Below are positions 1,312 to 15,865 of a stretch of 24,161 bases of DNA, one piece after another. Made by a program: the position numbers and the translations under genes. Every line of letters begins with the position of its first letter. Within the stretch, counting starts at the first letter, position 1. The notes under the pieces were generated by a model. The model searched no databases. It worked only from the letters and a program-made list of their open reading frames with translations, and was not told where the DNA came from. Source of the DNA: an uncultured archaeon (lineage in GTDB: Archaea > Asgardarchaeota > Thorarchaeia > Thorarchaeales > Thorarchaeaceae); contig CAYWJO010000050.1 in assembly GCA_964458565.1 (NCBI GenBank), positions 1 to 24,161 on the forward strand, in the 5' to 3' direction.

Positions 1312-1346
1312 AAAAAAAGGGATTAACTCCCAATTATCTGGGAGTT
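1312..1346 (-). terminator. Hairpin plus T-tract terminator for the uvrA/nucleotidyltransferase operon, between convergent genes
   Basis: Perfect 8-bp inverted repeat AACTCCCA (1325-1332) / TGGGAGTT (1339-1346), followed on the minus strand by T7 (A7 at 1312-1318). Confidence 0.6.
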
Positions 1347-1372: not shown

Positions 1373-3256
1373 CTAGAAGATCAGATCGGAGGGTATGTAA
1401 TCACGGCCTTGAGAAATCTGATAGGCGGGTTGCATCATTTCAGCAGAACTCTTCTTCGTGAAACGAAGCGGTGCCTCGGTCTGTTCAATCAACTTCATTT
1501 CCACAAACTCTCGGAGATCTAGGGGCAACCAGATGTCACTGAAGTGTGTCTTCAGATCGTCATAGGAAACCTCCTCCTTCTGCTCCAATAGTCGCAGGAC
1601 TGGTTGTGCGATGGTCTCTAATCTGTCCCATAAATACATCTCCATCTTTCGTAGCACCTCATCCAATGTTGCCAAATCCTTCCTTGGATTGGTAATCATG
1701 TCGGTGAAAATCGATTGAAACATCTCAGGATTGAGCTCCAAAGCCTGTACTGTGGACTCACGAAGTGGAACCTTGCGATTCAGTAGGACCTCAATATTAG
1801 CTAGTCGTCGGATAGCAGACATGATGAACGCTATGCTGAACTGAGGGTCTTTCTTGACGTGGATTGCCTTGTATGCCTTATTTATGAGGTCCTTGCAGAA
1901 GATGTAGTTTAGAAGAACCAGATTTTCAAGGTCTCGTGACCCGATGTTTTCCATATCCTCGTATAAGTCATGGATTGTATCATCTCGTGTGAAGGCAATC
2001 TTACTTACGTTGAATGTGGAATGCAAAGGACTACCATCTGTGACTCGCTGAATTTGTTTCCTGAACTGATCCCGTGTAAATAGGTACAAATAGACCATCA
2101 CATCATTCTCAAGTCCACCAACCATCGGTTTCTGAATCTCGTCTCTCGTGACAATTAGAAGGTCGATATCGGACTTCTCCCACACTGTATCATAAGCCAA
2201 ACTACCACCTAGAATTACTGATAGAATGTACTCGTCAGATTTTGCACGTTCAACAAAGTCATTGAGAGCCTTCTCATAGTCAGCATGTACTCTAGAGCGT
2301 TCAACGGCGCGTGGCCCCACGTGTGTTGGAATCACGTCATCAGGATTGAAGGAGTCCCAACTGAAGTGATATTGAGGCTCTTGATAGTCAATACGACCTC
2401 TCTTTGTGAGTTTTACAGGTGCTACGGTTCTTCGAAGAATTCGTCTTCTGTGCAGATGTTCCATCTCAATATATGATAAACCTCTCGGGCTGAAGTGGGT
2501 TGTTATCTCAGTACCTGTAGCGGTTCCACTATTCTCTGAGATGAAATCTAGAACCGGCTTGAATACGTCAAGTGCTATCGAGTCCATGTATTCGTATGTC
2601 ATCCGAATCTTCTGGTCCAGGACCTCCTTTGTGACCTCGCTATCAATGAGTTCATCATACAATTGTGGATACAGATCTGGTAGTAACTCTCTTCCTCGAA
2701 CTACGACCTCCCGAGGGGGATAAACATCGTTGAGGTAGCACAAGAAATAACCCAGCTCACTGAGTCCGTGAATGAGTGAGTGAAAACTGTGCGCGATGTC
2801 GTTCTTGATGTAGAGATGTTTCTCTGACTTACTCAAATCATACATTACTGCATTGTAGTAGAGTATCTGAAGGTATTCTCGGTCTCGCGTCCCCACTGTC
2901 TTATTCAGATTGTTATAAAACTCGGTGAAGGAACAGTCTCTTGAGAAGAGCAGTTTGCTCTTGTTGGCGAGAAACTGCAGGATTGTTGTTCCTCTTGGGC
3001 TCTGAATTCTTCGCATGAAGTCATCACGGTTATGGATTCGGATATCAATGGGCACTCCATTTTCGATAAGGCGAGTAATTCGATGCTTACCCTCATCTGT
3101 TATGACATACATGTTGATATTCGAACGTTCAGTCACCTCATCATACGCCATGCTACCAAAGAGGATTATTGCTAGTACTCTCTTATCCATTTTAGCCCGT
3201 TCAACAAAGCTGGAAATCGCTTCTTCGAACTGCTTCCGTACTCGTGGATCTTCCAT
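1373..3256 (-). CDS. Tandem-duplicated Pol-beta-superfamily nucleotidyltransferase-domain protein: 2 x [NTase, helical bundle, winged-helix-like], 627 aa
   Basis: Repeat 1 has ILFGSMAYDEVTERSNINM and repeat 2 has VILGGSLAYDTVWEKSDIDL (hG[GS]...DxD signature), offset by 317 aa. The repeats have matching ends (APVKLTKRG..EPQY / APLRFTKKS..QPAY). Start moved from 3328 to ATG 3256, which has AAAGGAG upstream and lies 17 nt after the uvrA stop. Confidence 0.85.
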   Translation of the reverse strand: MEDPRVRKQFEEAISSFVERAKMDKRVLAIILFGSMAYDEVTERSNINMYVITDEGKHRITRLIENGVPIDIRIHNRDDFMRRIQSPRGTTILQFLANKSKLLFSRDCSFTEFYNNLNKTVGTRDREYLQILYYNAVMYDLSKSEKHLYIKNDIAHSFHSLIHGLSELGYFLCYLNDVYPPREVVVRGRELLPDLYPQLYDELIDSEVTKEVLDQKIRMTYEYMDSIALDVFKPVLDFISENSGTATGTEITTHFSPRGLSYIEMEHLHRRRILRRTVAPVKLTKRGRIDYQEPQYHFSWDSFNPDDVIPTHVGPRAVERSRVHADYEKALNDFVERAKSDEYILSVILGGSLAYDTVWEKSDIDLLIVTRDEIQKPMVGGLENDVMVYLYLFTRDQFRKQIQRVTDGSPLHSTFNVSKIAFTRDDTIHDLYEDMENIGSRDLENLVLLNYIFCKDLINKAYKAIHVKKDPQFSIAFIMSAIRRLANIEVLLNRKVPLRESTVQALELNPEMFQSIFTDMITNPRKDLATLDEVLRKMEMYLWDRLETIAQPVLRLLEQKEEVSYDDLKTHFSDIWLPLDLREFVEMKLIEQTEAPLRFTKKSSAEMMQPAYQISQGRDYIPSDLIF

Positions 3257-3273
3257 ATGTAACAACTCCTTTG

Positions 3274-6108
3274 TTAGGAAACCTCCACGACTTTCTGGAG
3301 GAACTGACCAGTGTAGGACTGCTCGCACTTGATTATGTCCTCAACAGTACCCTCAGCGATGACTTCACCGCCTTCTGCACCTCCCTCTGGCCCAAGATCA
3401 ATGACCCAATCTGAGGATTTTATGACATCCAGATGATGCTCTATGACGATTACCGTGTTACCAGCATCTACGAGCTTATGAATCGTCTTCAGAAGCATCT
3501 TGATATCCTCCATGTGCAAACCCACGGTAGGTTCGTCCATGATGTACAAGTTGTCTTTGAGTTTCTTTAGCTTGCCAAGTTCCTTCGCGAGCTTGATACG
3601 CTGGCTCTCACCACCTGACAAGGTAGGTGCAGGTTGTCCAAGCTTCAGATAACCCAGACCAAGCTCCATCATTGTCTTTGTCTTGTGGCGGATGAGTCGC
3701 GTGTCCTTGAAGAAAGCGTTAGCCTCCTCAACTGTCATCTGAAGGACTTCACCCATGTTCTTTCCATTGTATCTGATTTCAAGAACTTCGTCAGAGTAAC
3801 GATCTCCTTTACATACCGGGCAAACTGTCTGGATATCAGGCATGTATTGCAGTTCTAACCTCACGAGACCCTCACCGTTACATTCAGAGCAACGACCTTC
3901 AGTCGAGTTGTAACTGAATCGTCCAACAGTATATCCACGATCAGTTGCTTCAGGTGTTGCTGCGAAGAGTTGGCGTATCTTGTCATAGAAACCAACATAG
4001 GTTGCAGGGGTGGAACGCGCATGTCTACCAATAGGAGACTGATCTACAATTCGTACATCCACAATATTCTCTACACCTTCAAGTCCATCCATCTTACCAG
4101 GTAATACTCGGGGGTCTCTCATATCATGAAGTAGCTTGTTACCCAACACATCCTCAATCAATGTGCTCTTTCCACTGCCACTGACACCTGTGATACAGAT
4201 GAACACACCTAGCGGAAATTCTACGTCTATTCCCTTGAGGTTGTTCTCTCGAGCACCGATGACCTTGATTGTCTTCCCGTTTGGTTTCCGAGCTTTTCCA
4301 AGATAGGGAATAGTCTTTTTCCCAGTCAGATAATGACCTGTCAAGAACTTGGGATCTTCTACTACTTGTTCATAGGGACCGTTAACAACAATCTCTCCTC
4401 CATGGACACCTGGGCCAGGTCCAATTTCTATGATGTTATCAGCCTGCCTGATTGTTTCCAGGTCATGCTCGATAACGATGACCGTATTACCTGTGTCCCG
4501 TAGGCGTTTGAGGATATTCACTATACGGTTGCTATCACGCATATGAAGACCTATCGATGGTTCATCCAAGACATACATCATCCCCATCAGTTCTGAACCA
4601 AGTTGAGCTGACAGTTTGATTCTTTGTGCTTCTCCTGCAGAAAGGGTTCTTGCACGTCTATTCAACCGGAGATAGTAGAGACCTATGTCATCGAGAAGTT
4701 GGATTCTCTTTCTCAATTCACTGATAACCTGATTACCTGCCTTCTCTTTCTCCTTCGGAACCTTAATGGAATCTACATATTCCAATAGATGGTTTATGAA
4801 ATACTCTCCAAGCTCATGGATATGCTTCCCGTCAACCGTGACCAGAATTCGCTGTCTGATGAGCTTCTGCCCTTGACACTCTGGACAGAGATGTTCAGCC
4901 ATCACCTTTCTATACCACTCGTAGCGTTCGCCTTTCTTTCTGTCATGTCGATAGAAACGATCGATGTAGTTGCATACTCCAAGATACCGAACCTTCTTGC
5001 CAGAATCACGATGTCGGTATTTATTAGGCCAATCCGGTGGTTCTTGAAGGATAAACTCCTCCTTGATACCATAGAATAGCTGATGCCTGATATCCTCAGA
5101 GAGTTCTTCAAATGGCGTATTCATATCGAATCCTAAATGCTGGCTGACGCTATACATCCAATACTTGGCATACCAAGACAAAGCTCCATCCTTGATACTC
5201 TTCTTAGGATTGATTACGATTAGTCGAGGTTCAGCCTTCAATAGAGTGCCCACTCCAAGACAGGTCTGACATGCATTTTCTGGAAGATTAGGAGAATATG
5301 CTCCCGGGAGTAGCTTATGCATGATGATGTGATGTTCCTTGCAACCAAAATTCTGATAGAACTTCTTTGCAGTCCCTTCAGGTAAGTTCACATCTGTGAA
5401 CTCGAATCTGATGAAACTGTTTCCTACATTCTTAGCATTCTCTATTGATATTGCAAATTGATGATACAGGTCTCGTTTGATGATGATTCGATCCACAAGA
5501 ACCTCAATCTTGTAATCCTTGGTTTCGTCAAGCTCTATCTTATCGTTGATGCCATGTGGTTCATCATCAATACGGATACGCTTGTAACCCTTCTGTCGTA
5601 TATCATCAAACAAGAAGGGATAATCCTCATCATGTATCTTATCCACGGGGGCAAGAATCTCAACACTTGTCCCCTCAGGTAAGGTCATGAGGTGATCAAC
5701 AATTTGGTTCGCATTACGTGTGTGGATCTTCTTTCCGCAGTAAGGACAATGAGCTTGACCTAGCACTGAGAAGAGGATTCTCATGTAGCTTGATATGTCT
5801 GTCATTGTACCAACAGTAGACCTTGGGTTTAATGTTCCAGTTCGCTGCTCAATAGCAACAACTGGTGACAGCCCAATGATTGAGTCTACATCAGCTCGCT
5901 CCAACATGGGTAGCATTGTTCGAGAAGTAGCTGACATGGATTCGAAGAACTTGCGTTGTGCTTCACTAAAAATTACGTCAAAAGCCAACGAAGTTTTTCC
6001 CGACCCCGACACGCCTGTTAAAACAGTTAATTTGTCGCGGGGGATATCCACATCTATATTCTTTAGATTATTCGTTCTAGCTCCTTTTACACTAATGTGT
6101 TCTCTCAT
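3274..6108 (-). CDS. uvrA: UvrA-family ABC ATPase (excinuclease ABC subunit A-like, divergent paralogue)
   Basis: Two Walker A motifs (GVSGSGKT, GVSGSGKS); Walker B/D-loop motifs (YVLDEPSIGLH, YIMDEPTVGLH); signatures LSAGE and LSGGE; GPGPGVHGG and GPEGGAEGG; Zn-binding CxxC pairs (CPYC, CQTC, CPEC, CSEC/CPVC). The UvrB-binding-like and insertion domains are present. Strong SD AAAGGAGG. Confidence 0.93.
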   Translation of the reverse strand: MREHISVKGARTNNLKNIDVDIPRDKLTVLTGVSGSGKTSLAFDVIFSEAQRKFFESMSATSRTMLPMLERADVDSIIGLSPVVAIEQRTGTLNPRSTVGTMTDISSYMRILFSVLGQAHCPYCGKKIHTRNANQIVDHLMTLPEGTSVEILAPVDKIHDEDYPFLFDDIRQKGYKRIRIDDEPHGINDKIELDETKDYKIEVLVDRIIIKRDLYHQFAISIENAKNVGNSFIRFEFTDVNLPEGTAKKFYQNFGCKEHHIIMHKLLPGAYSPNLPENACQTCLGVGTLLKAEPRLIVINPKKSIKDGALSWYAKYWMYSVSQHLGFDMNTPFEELSEDIRHQLFYGIKEEFILQEPPDWPNKYRHRDSGKKVRYLGVCNYIDRFYRHDRKKGERYEWYRKVMAEHLCPECQGQKLIRQRILVTVDGKHIHELGEYFINHLLEYVDSIKVPKEKEKAGNQVISELRKRIQLLDDIGLYYLRLNRRARTLSAGEAQRIKLSAQLGSELMGMMYVLDEPSIGLHMRDSNRIVNILKRLRDTGNTVIVIEHDLETIRQADNIIEIGPGPGVHGGEIVVNGPYEQVVEDPKFLTGHYLTGKKTIPYLGKARKPNGKTIKVIGARENNLKGIDVEFPLGVFICITGVSGSGKSTLIEDVLGNKLLHDMRDPRVLPGKMDGLEGVENIVDVRIVDQSPIGRHARSTPATYVGFYDKIRQLFAATPEATDRGYTVGRFSYNSTEGRCSECNGEGLVRLELQYMPDIQTVCPVCKGDRYSDEVLEIRYNGKNMGEVLQMTVEEANAFFKDTRLIRHKTKTMMELGLGYLKLGQPAPTLSGGESQRIKLAKELGKLKKLKDNLYIMDEPTVGLHMEDIKMLLKTIHKLVDAGNTVIVIEHHLDVIKSSDWVIDLGPEGGAEGGEVIAEGTVEDIIKCEQSYTGQFLQKVVEVS

Positions 6109-6117
6109 GAACTCATG

Positions 6118-6125
6118 CCTCCTTT
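6118..6125 (-). promoter_or_regulatory. Shine-Dalgarno sequence of uvrA
   Basis: Minus strand reads AAAGGAGG, 9 nt upstream of the ATG at 6108. Confidence 0.75.
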
Positions 6126-6359
6126 CATCAGTTCAACACTTAGCCTACCACTACACAGCTTTACCAGCCAAAAGAGCAGGCAATAGTGCCTGATGATAGC
6201 TTGAGGTCTCTCACGATTATGAGAAAGTAGTCTCAAGTCTGAAGGAAGGACATATAGTCATTTCGGTTGCCGTAACAAACGTATATCTGAGATATAATTT
6301 GAATTAAAAATCAAAATCCATAAGAGATGAATTGAGATCTATAGAACAGGGGAAGGTAA

Positions 6360-6743
6360 TTGGCCAAATCAAAGGAGAAGAGAAAGGAATCCAGCTTGGG
6401 TGCATTCATTATTATGTTGGCTATCACAGTGGTAATCGATGTAATCACATTCTTTGTGAGCCCAGAAGCATTCATCCAGGTCGCGGGTACATCAATTGGA
6501 TTAGCAACAGTTTTTTCGCTCATTGGATTTGTCTACTGCGTTTACTGTGTTCAAGAACAAGCTGAATATGAAATGAAGAGTGCAACTACAAGACTTGAAG
6601 GTCCGGATACAACACCTGGAGGTCAACGTAGGTTCACATGTTCTGAGTGTGGGGGGATAGGATACTACGAGATAGATGATGCCAACATCATAAACCATGT
6701 TGTCTGTAGATACTGCGGAAAACCATTCACGCCGCATGGTTAA
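6360..6743 (+). CDS. Small 2-TM membrane protein with C-terminal zinc ribbon
   Basis: TTG start after GGAAGGT; basic N-terminus; two hydrophobic helices; C-terminal CSECGG...CRYCGKPF. Confidence 0.8.
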   Translation: MAKSKEKRKESSLGAFIIMLAITVVIDVITFFVSPEAFIQVAGTSIGLATVFSLIGFVYCVYCVQEQAEYEMKSATTRLEGPDTTPGGQRRFTCSECGGIGYYEIDDANIINHVVCRYCGKPFTPHG

Positions 6744-7025
6744 ACAGATTGTGTTTCTGAATAAATCACGGATTCTTCTTCATCAAGATTTACGATCGGT
6801 TCGTGGAAGGTTTCTCTTGCTTTTTATGAGTAGTAGGATAATACTCGTTGCGATTTACTCGCAGAGAGATTCTACCTGATTTGGCCTTTGTTTTAAAAAG
6901 GATTGAAAAAACAGGATAACCTAACAGAATTAACAGATTCTCAAAAATTATAACTGATTAGTGATATTATCAAAAGGAGATGCAGAGTCATCAATAGGAG
7001 ACTCAGTAAGGTAGTTATTCGCGTC

Positions 7026-8966
7026 GTGGAGATGAAAGGTATGAAACACTCCAAGTTAATTCTAATTCTGTTTGTTCTAGTGTTTGGTGTAACAGCATCT
7101 GGAACATTCGTGATAAATTACTCATCAATTCATAAGCCTATACGAAACCAAAGTATTGCACAGTATACAGAACATACAGCAATTACTATTCTGAATGACA
7201 CGGATTTTGGATGGCAAGCTGGAAATGAATCATGGCAAGGAGAAGGCTCATCAGACCAGCCATACATAATTGAGGGACTCAACATCACAGCTGATGGTAA
7301 TTGCATACAGATTAGTGATGTTAGAGTTCACTTTATCATTCGCGATTGTCTTTTGACTTCTATCAATCCTGGATCTGGTAATGGGATGGATATCTATAAT
7401 GCAACAAATTTCATCATCGAGGATTCCATGATATCAGAAAATGACTTTGGAGTACATTTGTTGTTATGTCAGAATGTGACTTTCAATAATAACACCATAC
7501 ATAGTAATCTTGATGATGGAATATATATCGAAGAATCCAGCTACTGTACTTTGATTCTCAACCGTATTTACGATAGCTATACAGGTATCTATGGTGAGGA
7601 TTGTAGTTACGTCAATGTTACTGACAACACATTCTACCTGAATGGATATCAGGCGATATATGCTCGAATTGGTACCAACTGGACGATTGTTGAAAACACG
7701 ATTTTTGATAATGACTTTGAGGGTGTATATCTCTGGAATATTGATTATGGAATTATTTCACATAATGAGATATACAACAGCACATACAATGGTATACAGA
7801 TGTATTTCTCTGAAAATTGCACAATTGAAGACAATGTGATTCACGACAATGGTTGGTATGAAGCCCCGATGAATACCGGTTCTGGAGTCTATACAAGAGA
7901 TGCTGAGGGGGTTAGATTGATTGATAATCAGCTCTACAACAATTCTATGCATGGAGCATACATTCGTGATTCAAGTAACAATATAATTGAAGGGAATACT
8001 GTATACAGTAATTATGGATTGTTAGGTGAAGGTTGCGGAATCTACCTCTCCAATGCAGATGAAACGAGTATTATTGATAATATTGCCTATAACAATACCC
8101 AGAACGGAATAACAGGATGGTATGCGGATAATTGTACATACACCAACAACATGGTCTATGATAACACAATGGATGGTTTCGATATATCATACTCGGTGAA
8201 CTGTACACTCGAAACTAACGTAGTATACGATAATGGAGGGTATGGCATCCAGATTGCAAATGGAGACAACAATTTTATGATTGCAAATGATCTGGGTTGG
8301 AATTATCTGGGAAATGCTCTAGATGATGCAGGGGATAATTACTGGAATACCACAGTTGGTAATTATTGGAGCGATTATGAGGGACAACAACTCTATACCA
8401 TTGCAGGTTCCGGTGATGCAATTGATTACCATCCATGGTATAACCTTCTAGTAGGAATTGCAGATGCTCTCTCTTTTGAACAAGGCCAAACTGGCAATAC
8501 TCTGACATGGAATTCATCAGCAGCTAATCCAGGAGTCTATGATGTACTCGATAACGGAGTTTCCTTTGAATCTCAACCATGGGATGGTGCTGCTATTAAC
8601 ATCAATGTTGATGGACTTGATGTAGGATATCATAACGTCACTCTAATAGTGTATCATATTTCTGGTCACTTTATGAGTAGTACAACTTATGTCAATGTCA
8701 CTGCTCCAATCGTCACCACTACTACAACAACCTGTTGGAGCTGTGGAACATGTTCATCTACAACATCATCTAGCATTCCTTCAAGTTCAACTACGTGGAG
8801 CTGTACTTGTTCAACCCCACCAACACCTAGCACTACTTCAACTTCATCAGAATCTACAGCAACACAACCCACAGATGAAGCTGCAATAGTTATGTGGTTA
8901 ACAGTCGGAGGAGTAGGCATTGTTATTATTCTCGTAGTAATAATTGTAGCATCAAGAAGACGCTGA
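7026..8966 (+). CDS. Cell-surface right-handed parallel beta-helix (NosD/CASH-like) protein with Ig-like domain, Ser/Thr stalk and C-terminal membrane anchor
   Basis: N-terminal signal/anchor; GSSDQPYIIEGLNI cap; many 22-23-aa repeats (GIYI..S..CT...N.IY.N); GNYWSDY motif; T/S-rich linker; TM helix ending in RRR. The true start may be ATG 7032 or 7041. Confidence 0.9.
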   Translation: MEMKGMKHSKLILILFVLVFGVTASGTFVINYSSIHKPIRNQSIAQYTEHTAITILNDTDFGWQAGNESWQGEGSSDQPYIIEGLNITADGNCIQISDVRVHFIIRDCLLTSINPGSGNGMDIYNATNFIIEDSMISENDFGVHLLLCQNVTFNNNTIHSNLDDGIYIEESSYCTLILNRIYDSYTGIYGEDCSYVNVTDNTFYLNGYQAIYARIGTNWTIVENTIFDNDFEGVYLWNIDYGIISHNEIYNSTYNGIQMYFSENCTIEDNVIHDNGWYEAPMNTGSGVYTRDAEGVRLIDNQLYNNSMHGAYIRDSSNNIIEGNTVYSNYGLLGEGCGIYLSNADETSIIDNIAYNNTQNGITGWYADNCTYTNNMVYDNTMDGFDISYSVNCTLETNVVYDNGGYGIQIANGDNNFMIANDLGWNYLGNALDDAGDNYWNTTVGNYWSDYEGQQLYTIAGSGDAIDYHPWYNLLVGIADALSFEQGQTGNTLTWNSSAANPGVYDVLDNGVSFESQPWDGAAININVDGLDVGYHNVTLIVYHISGHFMSSTTYVNVTAPIVTTTTTTCWSCGTCSSTTSSSIPSSSTTWSCTCSTPPTPSTTSTSSESTATQPTDEAAIVMWLTVGGVGIVIILVVIIVASRRR

Positions 8967-13101: not shown

Positions 13102-14499
13102 ATGGTGCACTTATTGTTAGAAGCCATGTCAGATGCCATTGAAGAAATCTCTTCAAAAGATGTATCGTTTGCAGATATCAGAAGAGAGAGTCAATCTGGA
13201 AATACTATTATCGTTGTCAACGGGAATCTTAGAGAATTCAAAAACGTGAGCAAAGCTGGAGCAGTAGCTCGTGTGCTTGTTGGAGAGTGCTGGGGGCAAG
13301 CATCAACTACACTTCCTCTTTCAAAAGAACTCTATGAAGAACTTCTTGAAGAGGCATTGAAACGGGCAAGAGCAAGTGCAAAATATTCCCGAAAGAACAT
13401 TGATCTGAGTAACATCCCTTCTCATGTTGATAAAGTGTTTCAAAAGGTAAAGGAAGATCCCACTACAGTACCTTACGAGGAGAAAATCGGTATAGCGCTT
13501 GAGTTGGACAAAGGTCAAAAAATAGATGATAGAGTTGTGAATACGAATGCATATCTGATGGACCAGAAACGAGATTATGCATTGGTTAACACTGTAGGCT
13601 CAAGACTAGAATGGGATGAAATCAGGACCCTATCATATATTATGTCTGTTGCCAAAGAGGGGGAGCAAACACAATTCAATGTCGAGATTGCAGGAGGCTC
13701 AGGGGGTTACGAGATAATTAGGAAAATCAATCCTGAAGAATTTTCAAAATCTTGTGCTAGCGGAGCCGTAGAACTACTGAAAGCAGACAAACCGCCATCA
13801 GGTGAATTGACCGTAATCCTAGATGGAAGCATGTCCGGTCTCATTGCTCACGAGGTATGTGGGCATGCAAGTGAAGCAGATGAGGTTGTAAAGGAAAGGT
13901 CATTTCTGACTGGATTAGTTGGTAAGCAGATAGGCACAGATATAGTTACAATGGTTGATGATGGTACCTTGAAGCAATGGGGAGGAATTCCATTTGACTC
14001 AGAAGGAACTCCCACATCTCGTACAGCCATTATAGAAAATGGAATTTTACAGGGGTATATGCATACACTCGAAACATCTGTTATGATGGGTGTTTCCCCA
14101 ACAGGAAATGGACGTGCACAGGACTACAATAGGCGTATCTTCGCGAGGATGACAAACACCTTTTTCGACAAAGGGGATTGGAAAGATGAAGAAATCATAG
14201 AAGATACGAAAGACGGTTTATACGTGATTAAAATGACCTCGGGTATGGAAGATGTTGTTGGTGGAGGTGTTCAAGCTTCAGCCCTTAAAGGCTACATCAT
14301 CAAGAATGGAGAACGTACCAAGCTAGTGAGGAGCATGACTCTTGCGGGGAAGGTTCTTGAAATATTGAAGACTGTAGATGCTGTTGGAAATACACTTGAA
14401 TTTGATGGAGGGACTTGTGGAAAAGGAGAGGAGGACTTTATACCAGTGTCCTCAGGTGGACCACATCTTAGAGCAAAAATAGTAGTTGGAGGCGGTTAA
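13102..14499 (+). CDS. tldD: TldD metalloprotease (catalytic subunit)
   Basis: HExxxH in AHEVCGHASEAD, FDSEG, TGNGRAQ, RMTNT and C-terminal GTCGK...PVSSGGP. The start may be ATG 13126. Confidence 0.93.
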   Translation: MVHLLLEAMSDAIEEISSKDVSFADIRRESQSGNTIIVVNGNLREFKNVSKAGAVARVLVGECWGQASTTLPLSKELYEELLEEALKRARASAKYSRKNIDLSNIPSHVDKVFQKVKEDPTTVPYEEKIGIALELDKGQKIDDRVVNTNAYLMDQKRDYALVNTVGSRLEWDEIRTLSYIMSVAKEGEQTQFNVEIAGGSGGYEIIRKINPEEFSKSCASGAVELLKADKPPSGELTVILDGSMSGLIAHEVCGHASEADEVVKERSFLTGLVGKQIGTDIVTMVDDGTLKQWGGIPFDSEGTPTSRTAIIENGILQGYMHTLETSVMMGVSPTGNGRAQDYNRRIFARMTNTFFDKGDWKDEEIIEDTKDGLYVIKMTSGMEDVVGGGVQASALKGYIIKNGERTKLVRSMTLAGKVLEILKTVDAVGNTLEFDGGTCGKGEEDFIPVSSGGPHLRAKIVVGGG

Positions 14500-14500
14500 A

Positions 14501-15865
14501 ATGAATATCAGAGAGATTGCAGATAAACTGATCACTCTATCACAGAAAGAGGGAGCAGATCAAGCTGAAACTTATGTTGTTTTAGCAAAGACATCTAGCG
14601 TTTACATAGATGATAATATCCCCAAGATTGCAGATGTTAAGATGGAACTTGGCATCAACGTGAAGTTCATAACAGGTAAGAAAATTGGATTTACTAGCTC
14701 AACATTACTCAATGAAACTCCAGAAGAGGTTGTGATAAGAGCAAAGAAGCTTGCTAGCCTAAGTGAAGAAGACACCAAATTCGTTTCATTACCAGAACCA
14801 CAACAGGTTTCAGGAAATCGTGAGAGGTTCTATGATAAAAAAACTGCAAATGTGTCAAGTGATGAGATACTGGAGAAAGCTATGCTTGTGGTCGATTCAA
14901 CTATATCCAATGGAATAACAGTTCCAAATGGAGTTCTACGGGCAAGCTCTGTGGACTATCAGGTGAAAAATACACAAGGTATTGATACAGGTTCAATGGG
15001 AACACAAGTCTTCGGATACTTTACTGCTAAATCAGATAAGGATGGAGCGGTAGGAGAAGGAGTACAACGATGTTGGTCTCGTGAACTAGGCAACATCGAT
15101 TTTGCAAAGATGGGAACAAAACTACAAGCTCAAGCTCTTGCGGTTCTAAATGCGGAGCCATTCAAAGCAAAGTGGGAGGACATCACTGCAGTTTTAGCTC
15201 CAAGCGAGGGTTGTGAGATGCTGGGAAATCTTGTCGGTTCAGCATGTTCTGCGGAAAATGTTAACAACCGCTCAAGTCCTTGGACTGATCGAGTTGGAGA
15301 TAAGGTCGCTCATGAGAGTTTAACGGTATACGATAATGGACAATCAGAGAATGGACTTTTGAGCGGCATTGTTGATGCGGAAGGATTTCCGACACAGAAG
15401 ACATTGTTAATCGATCATGGCGTCCTACAATCTTACTACTATGATAGCTACAACGGAAATCAGGTTGGTCTAGAGTCCACTGGGAATGGTATACGAAGAG
15501 ATTCTCGAGATGCACATGGTAGCTTCAACAATCTTCCATCCTGTGCGTCATCTACGCTTGAAGTTTCAGCGGGGAAGTATAGTGTCGAGGAATTAATAGG
15601 ACAAATTAAGAAGGGTGTCTACATCGAACATTTCGCTTGGCCTCAAGTTGATGCTATATCAGGTTCATTTTCGAATGAGATCAGAAATGCAAGACTTATC
15701 GAAAATGGAGAATTGACCACACAAATAAAGTATGCATTACTAGTTGGAAATCTCTATGAATCTATACAGAAGGAGATCCTATATGCTAAAGACCTTCAGG
15801 TGAATTCGAAACGATTCATGCCAACTATAGCGTTTTCTGGCATAGAACTTGTCGGTCAGGAGTAG
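14501..15865 (+). CDS. pmbA: TldE/PmbA (non-catalytic partner of TldD)
   Basis: GADQAE N-terminus, DAEG, STGNG and SGSFS motifs; no HExxxH. ATG lies 1 nt after the tldD stop. Confidence 0.9.
   Translation: MNIREIADKLITLSQKEGADQAETYVVLAKTSSVYIDDNIPKIADVKMELGINVKFITGKKIGFTSSTLLNETPEEVVIRAKKLASLSEEDTKFVSLPEPQQVSGNRERFYDKKTANVSSDEILEKAMLVVDSTISNGITVPNGVLRASSVDYQVKNTQGIDTGSMGTQVFGYFTAKSDKDGAVGEGVQRCWSRELGNIDFAKMGTKLQAQALAVLNAEPFKAKWEDITAVLAPSEGCEMLGNLVGSACSAENVNNRSSPWTDRVGDKVAHESLTVYDNGQSENGLLSGIVDAEGFPTQKTLLIDHGVLQSYYYDSYNGNQVGLESTGNGIRRDSRDAHGSFNNLPSCASSTLEVSAGKYSVEELIGQIKKGVYIEHFAWPQVDAISGSFSNEIRNARLIENGELTTQIKYALLVGNLYESIQKEILYAKDLQVNSKRFMPTIAFSGIELVGQE

Follow-up and report, generated by a model that had tools for sequence, protein, structure and literature searches.

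The stretch of DNA analysed here, 24,161 nucleotides (nt) of contig CAYWJO010000050.1 (assembly GCA_964458565.1; C50 in our numbering) and called the window throughout, comes from an uncultured Asgard archaeon and carries two adjoining genes on its reverse strand: one for a paralogue of UvrA and one for a protein with two nucleotidyltransferase (NTase) units in tandem. The genome around it amounts to 3.73 Mb and is 93%-complete, and near-identical homologues are labelled Candidatus Thorarchaeota. The two genes and their signals make up a self-contained operon: promoter, structured leader, uvrA paralogue, tandem NTase/winged helix-turn-helix (wHTH) gene and terminator. Its features are the following (aa, amino acids; SD, Shine-Dalgarno sequence):

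6251..6257, minus strand: TATA-like CTATATG, just upstream of the leader (sequence)
6109..6235, minus strand: conserved structured 5' leader before uvrA (alignments A4-A6, covariance model R1)
6207..6226, minus strand: near-palindrome TTTCTCA (6226-6220)...TGAGAGA (6213-6207) in the leader (alignment)
6203..6206, minus strand: CCUC pairing with the SD GGAGG (alignment)
6118..6125, minus strand: SD of uvrA, AAAGGAGG, 9 nt before the ATG, its GGAGG invariant across the leader alignment
3274..6108, minus strand: uvrA paralogue (944 aa + stop), a member of the NTase-linked clade with the complete class I architecture (TIGR00630, PF17760, PF17755, motifs, tree)
3266..3272, minus strand: SD of the NTase gene, AAAGGAG, inside the 17-nt gap, 9 nt before the ATG
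1373..3256, minus strand: tandem NTase gene (627 aa + stop), twice Pol-beta NTase, helical bundle and winged helix (PF18765 + PF01909, AlphaFold2 model, Foldseek)
2321..3256, minus strand: NTase unit 1 (aa 1-312), GS...S-N-I-N, catalytically degenerate (NxN in 34 of 38 orthologues, DxN in 3, NxD in 1)
1376..2320, minus strand: NTase unit 2 (aa 313-627), GS...S-D-I-D intact (DxD in 35 of 38 orthologues, DxG in 3)
1312..1346, minus strand: terminator closing both genes, a 9-bp hairpin AACTCCCAGATAATTGGGAGTT (1346-1325) followed by T7 (1318-1312)

The UvrA reading frame runs from 6108 to 3277 and ends in TAA (3276-3274); the NTase frame opens with the ATG at 3256, runs to 1376 and is closed by the stop codon at 1375-1373. 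Exactly 17 nt (3273-3257) lie between them, with uvrA first and the NTase gene downstream. Both flanking frames (344-1303 and 6360-6743) are on the plus strand, opposite to the pair. A first-pass annotation of the window had described this layout (shared orientation, 17-nt gap, two SDs, hairpin/T7 terminator, flanking genes pointing the other way), and re-reading the sequence confirms it in every detail; Pfam scans of the window proteins also agree with its statement that the 24 kb hold neither uvrB nor uvrC, the copies in this genome lying only on contig C15.

The association of the two genes extends far beyond this contig. With the tandem NTase protein as query, 40 of 400 Asgard genomes gave a match. 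Full-length tandem orthologues occur in Thorarchaeota and in one other family, labelled Heimdallarchaeota, and single-unit homologues (about 310 aa, 27-33% identity) in four Asgard families. Wherever the flank could be read (31 of 31 Asgard loci), the NTase adjoins a UvrA: directly upstream in the tandem loci (12/12, with UvrA 77-85% identical to that of the window), a 13th such locus, L077, having broken copies of both genes, and directly downstream in the single-unit loci (19/19). UvrAs linked to single units are 49-54% identical over their full length and 43-49% where a contig end shortens them; in the 14 single-unit loci with both genes complete the gap is -4 to +5 nt, often a 1- or 4-nt overlap. 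The flanks of the Asgard loci, mostly 3-5 kb per side, contain no uvrB or uvrC.

The same pairing is found in bacteria. A profile of the NTase unit retrieved 186 clusters (50% identity) at E <= 1e-30 among 1.84 billion representatives, with named members from Ktedonobacteraceae/Dictyobacter, Roseiflexaceae, other Chloroflexota, Armatimonadota and Defluviitaleaceae. UvrA is the next gene in all ten readable bacterial loci (Chloroflexota, Armatimonadota and Bacillota among them), those of the most remote members (E 1e-35 to 1e-62) included. Two of these bacterial NTases are whole-unit fusions to a sigma factor of extracytoplasmic function (ECF) type (Sigma70_r2 + r4), directly upstream of UvrA. 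NTase and UvrA are the only genes common to all 32 loci compared. Their usual order is NTase then UvrA; Thorarchaeota and one Heimdall-labelled lineage have UvrA first and then a duplicated NTase with a dead unit 1. The adjacency in 31 Asgard and 10 bacterial loci thus gives a positive answer to the question, raised in the first-pass annotation, whether the gene pair is conserved. One exception was met: a remote tandem NTase (P0070, about 30% identity, at 5001-6896 of locus L099 on a 4.96-Mb bacterial contig) has no adjoining UvrA, and the link therefore holds for the core of the family, not for every remote relative. In the remote tandem family to which it belongs (P0068, P0069 and P0070) unit 1 is live (SDID) and unit 2 reads TNIN, SSID or TDIN and has lost the GS motif, which suggests an independent duplication. 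A bacterial metagenome locus (L117, 2342-6301) has a single-unit NTase followed by two UvrA genes, the second of which runs off the locus and is sister to the first in the tree.

Maximum-likelihood trees of 54 and then 59 UvrA sequences included as references uvrB/uvrC-linked, tandem and fused Asgard UvrAs together with those of E. coli, Bacillus, Aerococcus and Prevotella and a class II copy from Streptomyces. All 36 NTase-linked UvrAs, 27 from Asgard archaea and 9 from bacteria, and with them the second copy in L117, lie on one side of a single branch that divides them from every reference (Shimodaira-Hasegawa-like approximate likelihood ratio test, SH-aLRT, 100; length 0.33-0.35 in both trees). 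The NTase-linked copies therefore form one clade apart from canonical and class II UvrAs, a point that the first-pass annotation had wanted checked, and the window UvrA does not group with uvrB/uvrC-linked ones. Scores on TIGR00630 are correspondingly bimodal, 1067-1140 bits for NTase-linked UvrAs vs 1237-1371 for other full-length copies (uvrB-linked, tandem or fused). Within the clade, UvrAs linked to tandem NTases are nested among those linked to single units, beside L046 and L047 (SH-aLRT 98 in the first tree, 85 in the second); the NTase of L047, which reads S-N-L-D, is identical to a protein of Heimdallarchaeota AB_125. The NTase tree recovers the same main groups, and units 1 and 2 both group with L046/L047 (SH-aLRT 93), so that the two trees together fit a duplication and an order swap within Asgard archaea. 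The midpoint root of the 59-UvrA tree falls inside the NTase-linked group; we read the tree as unrooted and make no firm claim on donor or direction of transfer.

The genome of the window also has a separate canonical set, for which the first-pass annotation had asked to look: on contig C15 lie uvrB, two small genes, two full-length uvrA genes in tandem (1336 and 1272 bits) and uvrC, with no NTase in the cluster, and a double UvrA is encoded on contig C21. Given these further uvrA genes, the window copy is not the only one of its genome. The two genes between uvrB and uvrA on C15 (L044, 255-11971) are a 314-aa gene on the opposite strand without Pfam match and a 194-aa gene with a weak, below-cut-off match of Penicillinase_R type; the uvrC match spans one TGA upstream of its 549-aa open reading frame (ORF). 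In three genomes of other Asgard families (G091, G085, G019) the two uvrA genes are fused in one frame of ~1920-1975 aa. The double UvrA of C21 (L045, 2613-7502, minus strand; 1629 aa, class III-like) overlaps by 4 nt a 345-aa gene resembling squalene-hopene cyclases (prenyltransferase alpha-alpha toroid), with HD-domain genes near; the same double UvrA occurs in most Asgard genomes searched and lies 3-9 kb from the NTase-UvrA pair in G328 and G353.

Every comparative test run (adjacency, clade, separate canonical cluster) favours the self-contained module that had been proposed, and we consider it almost certain that the window pair is a functional two-gene unit. The comparisons show that the pair is one form of a two-gene module that is conserved widely and exists beside the ordinary uvrB-uvrA-uvrA-uvrC cluster. 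The first-pass annotation knew of no characterised system with this pairing, and we found no published description of one in the literature searched; the UvrA-NTase module is undescribed there, real, and conserved across two domains of life.

The window UvrA is a full member of its family, with 1089.1 bits on TIGR00630 (cut-off 729.8) over residues 5-925, and falls just under the cut-off of the stricter NF001503 (1130 vs 1147). It has the UvrB-interaction domain (PF17760, residues 133-237, E 1.2e-23) and the insertion DNA-binding domain (PF17755, residues 294-394, E 1.5e-13), and neither its two sets of ATPase motifs (Walker A, signature, Walker B) nor its zinc-module Cys motifs show any loss. 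The annotation had called it divergent, which holds in the sense of a separate clade and fails in the sense of a degenerate protein. Some positions of the UvrB-binding domain are invariant in all 32 aligned clade members. When clade-specific positions are defined as at least 90% conserved within the clade and at most 10% shared with other UvrAs, 23 are found, and 8 of them lie in the 139-residue UvrB-binding domain (Fisher p = 0.013), a density of 5.8 per 100 residues vs about 1-2 in most other domains; at position 259 a conserved Cys has become His in the NTase-linked clade. The UvrB-binding domain of NTase-linked UvrAs is thus retained and retuned, not lost. The further proposal that the NTase replaces UvrB as effector is not supported, since this domain is kept, unlike in DrrC and Ecm16, and a genomic uvrB could still serve: one uvrB was found in 11 of 14 searched genomes that carry the module, and the sole uvrB of the present genome is the one on C15.

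The partner protein is predicted with confidence (AlphaFold2 model from 41 homologues, pLDDT 90.8, pTM 0.89) to consist of two copies of an NTase domain, a helical bundle and a winged helix. Foldseek places the uncharacterised structural-genomics protein 3c18 first for each unit, followed by ANT(4')-Ia (TMt about 0.72), HalB, ANT(4')-IIb, LinB, ANT(6) and ANT(9), and a profile search of PDB sequences agrees (3c18, E 4e-10). The fold is that of kanamycin nucleotidyltransferase (KNTase) and the ANT enzymes (Foldseek probability 1.00, TMt 0.69-0.73 to 6nmk, 6un8 and 1kan). KNTase works as a dimer with its sites at the interface, an arrangement that a single-chain pseudo-dimer would match. Because unit 1 reads NxN and unit 2 DxD, the tandem protein can be described as such a pseudo-dimer with at most one live site. 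Completion of the live site of unit 2 by E145/K146 of unit 1 was considered and dropped, the Glu not being conserved in single-unit members. Across the family, GS and DxD are present in 179 of 201 units and degenerate in the other 22; the three sequences with an S-D-I-G unit 2 match Heimdall-labelled loci, which thus have SNIN + SDIG. With the catalytic Asp pair lost in several lineages, nucleotidyl transfer, and with it the drug nucleotidylation that the first-pass annotation had listed, is not a universal output. Read from these motifs, what all lineages have in common must be a binding or scaffolding function, to which most of them add catalysis. No fusion of NTase and UvrA was found: a search for longer proteins gave none above 663 aa, and the best 150 of 1.84 billion representatives included none above 657 aa (a weak negative).

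The tandem loci share a further element, a leader RNA. Aligned regions upstream of uvrA from nine Thorarchaeota loci show a constant order: a TATA-like box, ~20 nt further on TTTCTCA-N5-TGAGAAA, and then CCUC within a long stem with compensatory changes. This palindrome recurs unchanged in 12 locus records, two for each of six distinct places; that of the window is a variant with TGAGAGA and a 6-nt spacer. In the leader alignment 91.8% of cells are paired vs 39-52% with slid partners (87-92% vs 34-52% over alignments A4-A6), and 11 pairs change on both sides, a number reached in 0 of 500 shuffles. The compensatory changes are in helices 3-5, with eight such pairs in helices 4 and 5 (16 sequences), and the window leader folds at -45.1 kcal/mol (z -2.7). 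Covariance model R1 recovers the leader in sequences outside its build, at 75 and 55 bits in two more Asgard loci (one Thorarchaeota-labelled, one Promethearchaeota-labelled) and at 35-52 bits in the Heimdall-labelled loci. The leader, 110-130 nt long, always lies directly before a tandem-type uvrA, in the same position in L065-L077, L082 and L087; with this model it was never found before a single-unit, bacterial or canonical uvrA, and a search against Rfam (4227 families) gave no match to the leader and a single chance-level hit outside it (E 0.72). In the tandem loci the transcript probably starts near the TCTCA...TGAGA core, which follows closely on the TATA-like box; this core is conserved letter by letter and shows no covariation, a pattern that a protein-binding site would produce. 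To our knowledge very few cis-regulatory RNAs are described from Asgard archaea, among which this leader would be a new candidate.

Whether the two proteins bind each other was addressed by complex prediction. For NTase residues 1-617 with UvrA residues 115-400 the median ipSAE is 0.47 (runs 0.63, 0.03 and 0.47), graded as weak support, with the best control at 0.00, partner pLDDT at least 67 and runs that agree in at least 41% of contacts; 58 of 80 solved complexes attain this mark, as do 2 of 110 mismatched pairs, and passes at ipSAE <=0.60 are more often wrong than right unless the pairing is likely beforehand. We hold the prior for binding fairly high because of the tight gene coupling and the matching trees. 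The gathering of clade-specific residues in the UvrB-binding domain (8 of 23) also speaks for a partnership. The expectation of an interaction is weakly supported by the median and is weakened by the discordant run and by the use of a UvrA fragment. Taken together, we think it probable that the UvrA paralogue and the NTase protein act together physically.

What the module is for is suggested mainly by its neighbours. In one Asgard locus (L048, 3313-4182) a 289-aa fusion of an ArsR-type wHTH with a GyrI-like/Cass2 effector-binding domain lies 16 nt upstream of a single-unit NTase, and would form a three-gene operon of ArsR-GyrI, NTase and UvrA; homologues occur in six Asgard loci in all (L048, L049, L050, L052, L055 and L062). 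The bacterial locus L116 has a GyrI-like/Cass2 gene directly upstream of the pair, with DinB_2 and GNAT genes near, and Dictyobacter a divergent TetR gene upstream. In the Heimdall-labelled L071 uvrA and the tandem NTase gene are separated by the gene of a 278-aa alpha/beta-hydrolase (5836-6672, minus strand; GESYG nucleophile elbow), the uvrA-NTase gap of L073 is of the same size, and in an Armatimonadota locus (L079) an alpha/beta-hydrolase-like gene follows UvrA. In L119 (1-20900) and a sibling contig the co-oriented pair lies inside a biosynthetic cluster with nonribosomal peptide synthetase (NRPS; C-A-T-C, A-T-C), B12-radical-SAM, radical-SAM, ATP-grasp and aminotransferase genes, and in L118 (Defluviitaleaceae) among genes for GNAT, carrier protein, pyridoxal-phosphate-dependent decarboxylase, radical-SAM and dehydroquinate-synthase-like proteins. 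UvrA-like genes in biosynthetic clusters are a marker of self-resistance to DNA intercalators, although the known ones are without the UvrB-binding domain (PMC10413001). The GyrI-like, TetR, hydrolase and NRPS/radical-SAM neighbours point to genotoxic small molecules, a link that also suits an NTase fold nearest, after 3c18, to drug-modifying enzymes, and among the functions listed in the first-pass annotation the drug-related one has the best contextual support.

We therefore hypothesize, as the best explanation at hand and still a tentative one, a dedicated UvrA-NTase pair that gives tolerance of DNA-targeting small molecules; on such tolerance as the biological role we are a shade more reserved. 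A UvrA dimer would search DNA for places where a genotoxic small molecule, bound or covalently attached, distorts the helix. Its dedicated partner would be the NTase/wHTH protein, which would act as a homodimer where a chain has one unit and as a single-chain pseudo-dimer in the window; winged helices and a contact with UvrA, possibly with its retuned UvrB-binding region or its insertion region, would keep this partner at the DNA. A KNTase-like pocket at the dimer interface would bind a nucleoside triphosphate (NTP) and/or the small molecule, which the NTase would nucleotidylate in most lineages; where the Asp pair is lost, its part would be limited to binding or sensing. As a result the cell would tolerate xenobiotics or natural products that target DNA. 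Hand-over to its single UvrB could still occur, and in the tandem loci the leader RNA, by sequestering the SD, may gate expression.

Several observations weigh against this proposal. A transcription regulator would account no less well for the wHTH domains, the sigma-70 fusions and the near-palindrome at the promoter, and such a role, by itself or together with enzyme activity, is a serious contender. The survey of neighbours is small and without a comparison of background frequencies, and Pfam scans find no drug-related neighbour in the window's own flanks. The complex prediction is weak, with one of its three runs at 0.03 and only a fragment of UvrA. The Heimdall-labelled tandem NTases are without any intact DxD, and the NTases of the NRPS cluster itself (P0347 and P0356) read SNIN and look catalytically dead.

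The first of these points leads to the rival that survives best, unlikely though we hold it to be: the NTase protein would be a one-component regulator, an NTase/helical ligand sensor whose winged helix or fused ECF sigma factor controls the adjacent uvrA, and the two proteins would form no complex. BirA offers an analogy of a ligand sensor and regulator derived from an enzyme. Such a role would suit the winged helix predicted at the C-terminus of each NTase unit, the whole-unit Sigma70_r2/r4 fusions directly upstream of UvrA, the place of the NTase as first operon gene in the common form, the loss of the catalytic Asp pair in several lineages, and the TCTCA...TGAGA core conserved without covariation near the probable transcript start of the tandem loci. 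However, the GS + DxD motif kept by 179 of 201 units would be unusual for a pure sensor, stop/start overlaps and agreement in tree groups would rather be expected of stoichiometric partners, some loci already have dedicated regulators (ArsR-GyrI, TetR), and in the window form the NTase gene is downstream of uvrA.

Two further explanations, to both of which we give little credence, differ in the part left to UvrB. In the first, a "sense-and-tag" pathway independent of UvrB and UvrC, a specialised UvrA dimer would find a distorting adduct or a bound genotoxin and use its retuned UvrB-binding domain to recruit a KNTase-like enzyme docked on DNA, which would nucleotidylate the offending molecule or the lesion itself, a new leader RNA responsive to ligand or protein switching the pathway on. 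In the second, the module would be a specialised branch of nucleotide excision repair (NER) for endogenous or environmental lesions, in which the UvrA paralogue loads UvrB and the NTase either links the process to transcription or modulates it, AMPylation of UvrA and the marking of DNA ends being examples. The UvrB-binding domain, the zinc-module Cys motifs and both ATPase sites are kept, as a repair branch would need, most module-carrying genomes searched have one uvrB (the 11 of 14 above), and the sigma-70 fusions could tether the system to RNA polymerase. Against it stand the patchy distribution (40 of 400 Asgard genomes match the NTase), the surroundings of the pair (biosynthetic clusters; GyrI-like, TetR and hydrolase genes), which a housekeeping repair branch would not lead one to expect, and an NTase fold nearest to small-molecule NTases, not to protein- or DNA-modifying ones.

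Defence against phages or plasmids, with UvrA sensing foreign or modified DNA and the NTase signalling or acting as effector, is improbable. The module is patchy and present in both bacteria and Asgard archaea, the C-terminal half of UvrA matches PADLOC mad3 of the MADS system (265 bits), a NotI restriction-modification pair adjoins one locus, and NTases are present in Hailong and MntA-type systems. Yet the module is without nuclease, pore or other toxic effector, PADLOC gives the NTase only weak candidate-family matches (PDC-S09, PDC-M05A), a tblastn search of 72,556 plasmids and 50,697 phages with one bacterial NTase member found no match, metabolic genes dominate the flanks, and UvrA is 77-88% identical between Thorarchaeota and Heimdall-labelled lineages, slow for a defence gene. 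Finally, chance neighbourhood of an ordinary uvrA and an unrelated NTase gene is refuted by adjacency in 41 of 41 readable related loci from two domains of life and by the single UvrA clade.

Set beside known systems, the module combines familiar parts in a new way. Like the class II UvrAs (DrrC, Ecm16, MtrX and UvrA2 of D. radiodurans), the present clade consists of UvrA paralogues apart from uvrB/uvrC, some of its members lie inside biosynthetic clusters, and the role proposed for it is DNA protection from DNA-binding natural products. It nevertheless falls outside class II: it keeps the UvrB-binding domain that class II is without (PMC10413001), and the UvrA tree puts the class II copy from Streptomyces on the side of the canonical sequences. 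The window UvrA scores 601 bits with 2vf7 and 459 bits with 7sh1 vs 939 bits with canonical UvrA among PDB entries, and no NTase partner has been described for class II, whereas the present clade has one. Canonical class I UvrA has the same domains and the same ATPase and zinc-module Cys motifs, and the window UvrA also scores high on TIGR00630 (1089 bits); the difference from class I is that the present UvrAs are a separate, long-stemmed clade that adjoins an NTase gene and never uvrB/uvrC.

The NTase, for its part, resembles ANT(4')-Ia, ANT(4')-IIb, LinB, ANT(6), ANT(9) and 3c18 in its NTase domain and helical bundle (TMt 0.69-0.73) and in the GS...DxD of unit 2; unlike these drug NTases, to which it is about 13-15% identical, it has an extra C-terminal winged helix per unit, a duplication with a dead unit and a link to UvrA. 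It belongs to no named resistance enzyme family (NCBIfam ANT(9), 17.5 bits vs a cut-off of 340). HalB, MntA (of MntA-HepT) and AbiEii share the Pol-beta NTase fold, with weak hidden Markov model (HMM) and fold matches, and the window NTase lies far under the cut-offs of the first two (HalB 24 vs 190 bits, MntA 26 vs 60), outside both families; no HalA, HepT or AbiEi partner adjoins it, its neighbours being UvrA and unrelated genes. The MADS mad3 match covers only UvrA residues 616-937 (the UvrA-type half of ATP-binding cassette, ABC, kind), and no MADS-type methyltransferase, nuclease or kinase is found among the genes Pfam-scanned around the pair.

UvrA is among the best-studied DNA-damage sensors, with UvrB and Mfd as its known partners. 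The clade described here would be a third kind of UvrA, full-length and locked to a KNTase-like/winged-helix partner in Chloroflexota and Bacillota as well as in Asgard archaea. Should the two proteins bind each other, they would represent a new output for damage sensing of UvrA type and a new marker for mining DNA-targeting natural products, and the tandem NTase is a clean case of a dead/live pseudo-dimer enzyme. The "sense-and-tag" pathway, if true, would add a new chemistry of DNA protection, common to bacteria and Asgard archaea.

The other genes of the window are of housekeeping type or without family match (a phosphoribosyltransferase, a TldD/PmbA pair, a biotin ligase, a major facilitator superfamily (MFS) transporter and a peptide ABC transporter). 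At 7026-8966 (plus strand) a 646-aa right-handed beta-helix (NosD-like) protein with an N-terminal signal/anchor, a Thr/Ser-rich stalk and a C-terminal transmembrane anchor is encoded, probably a surface (S-layer-type) protein. The TldD/PmbA-family metallopeptidase genes (13102-15865, plus strand; 465 and 459 aa) adjoin and overlap each other, the usual heterodimer pair.

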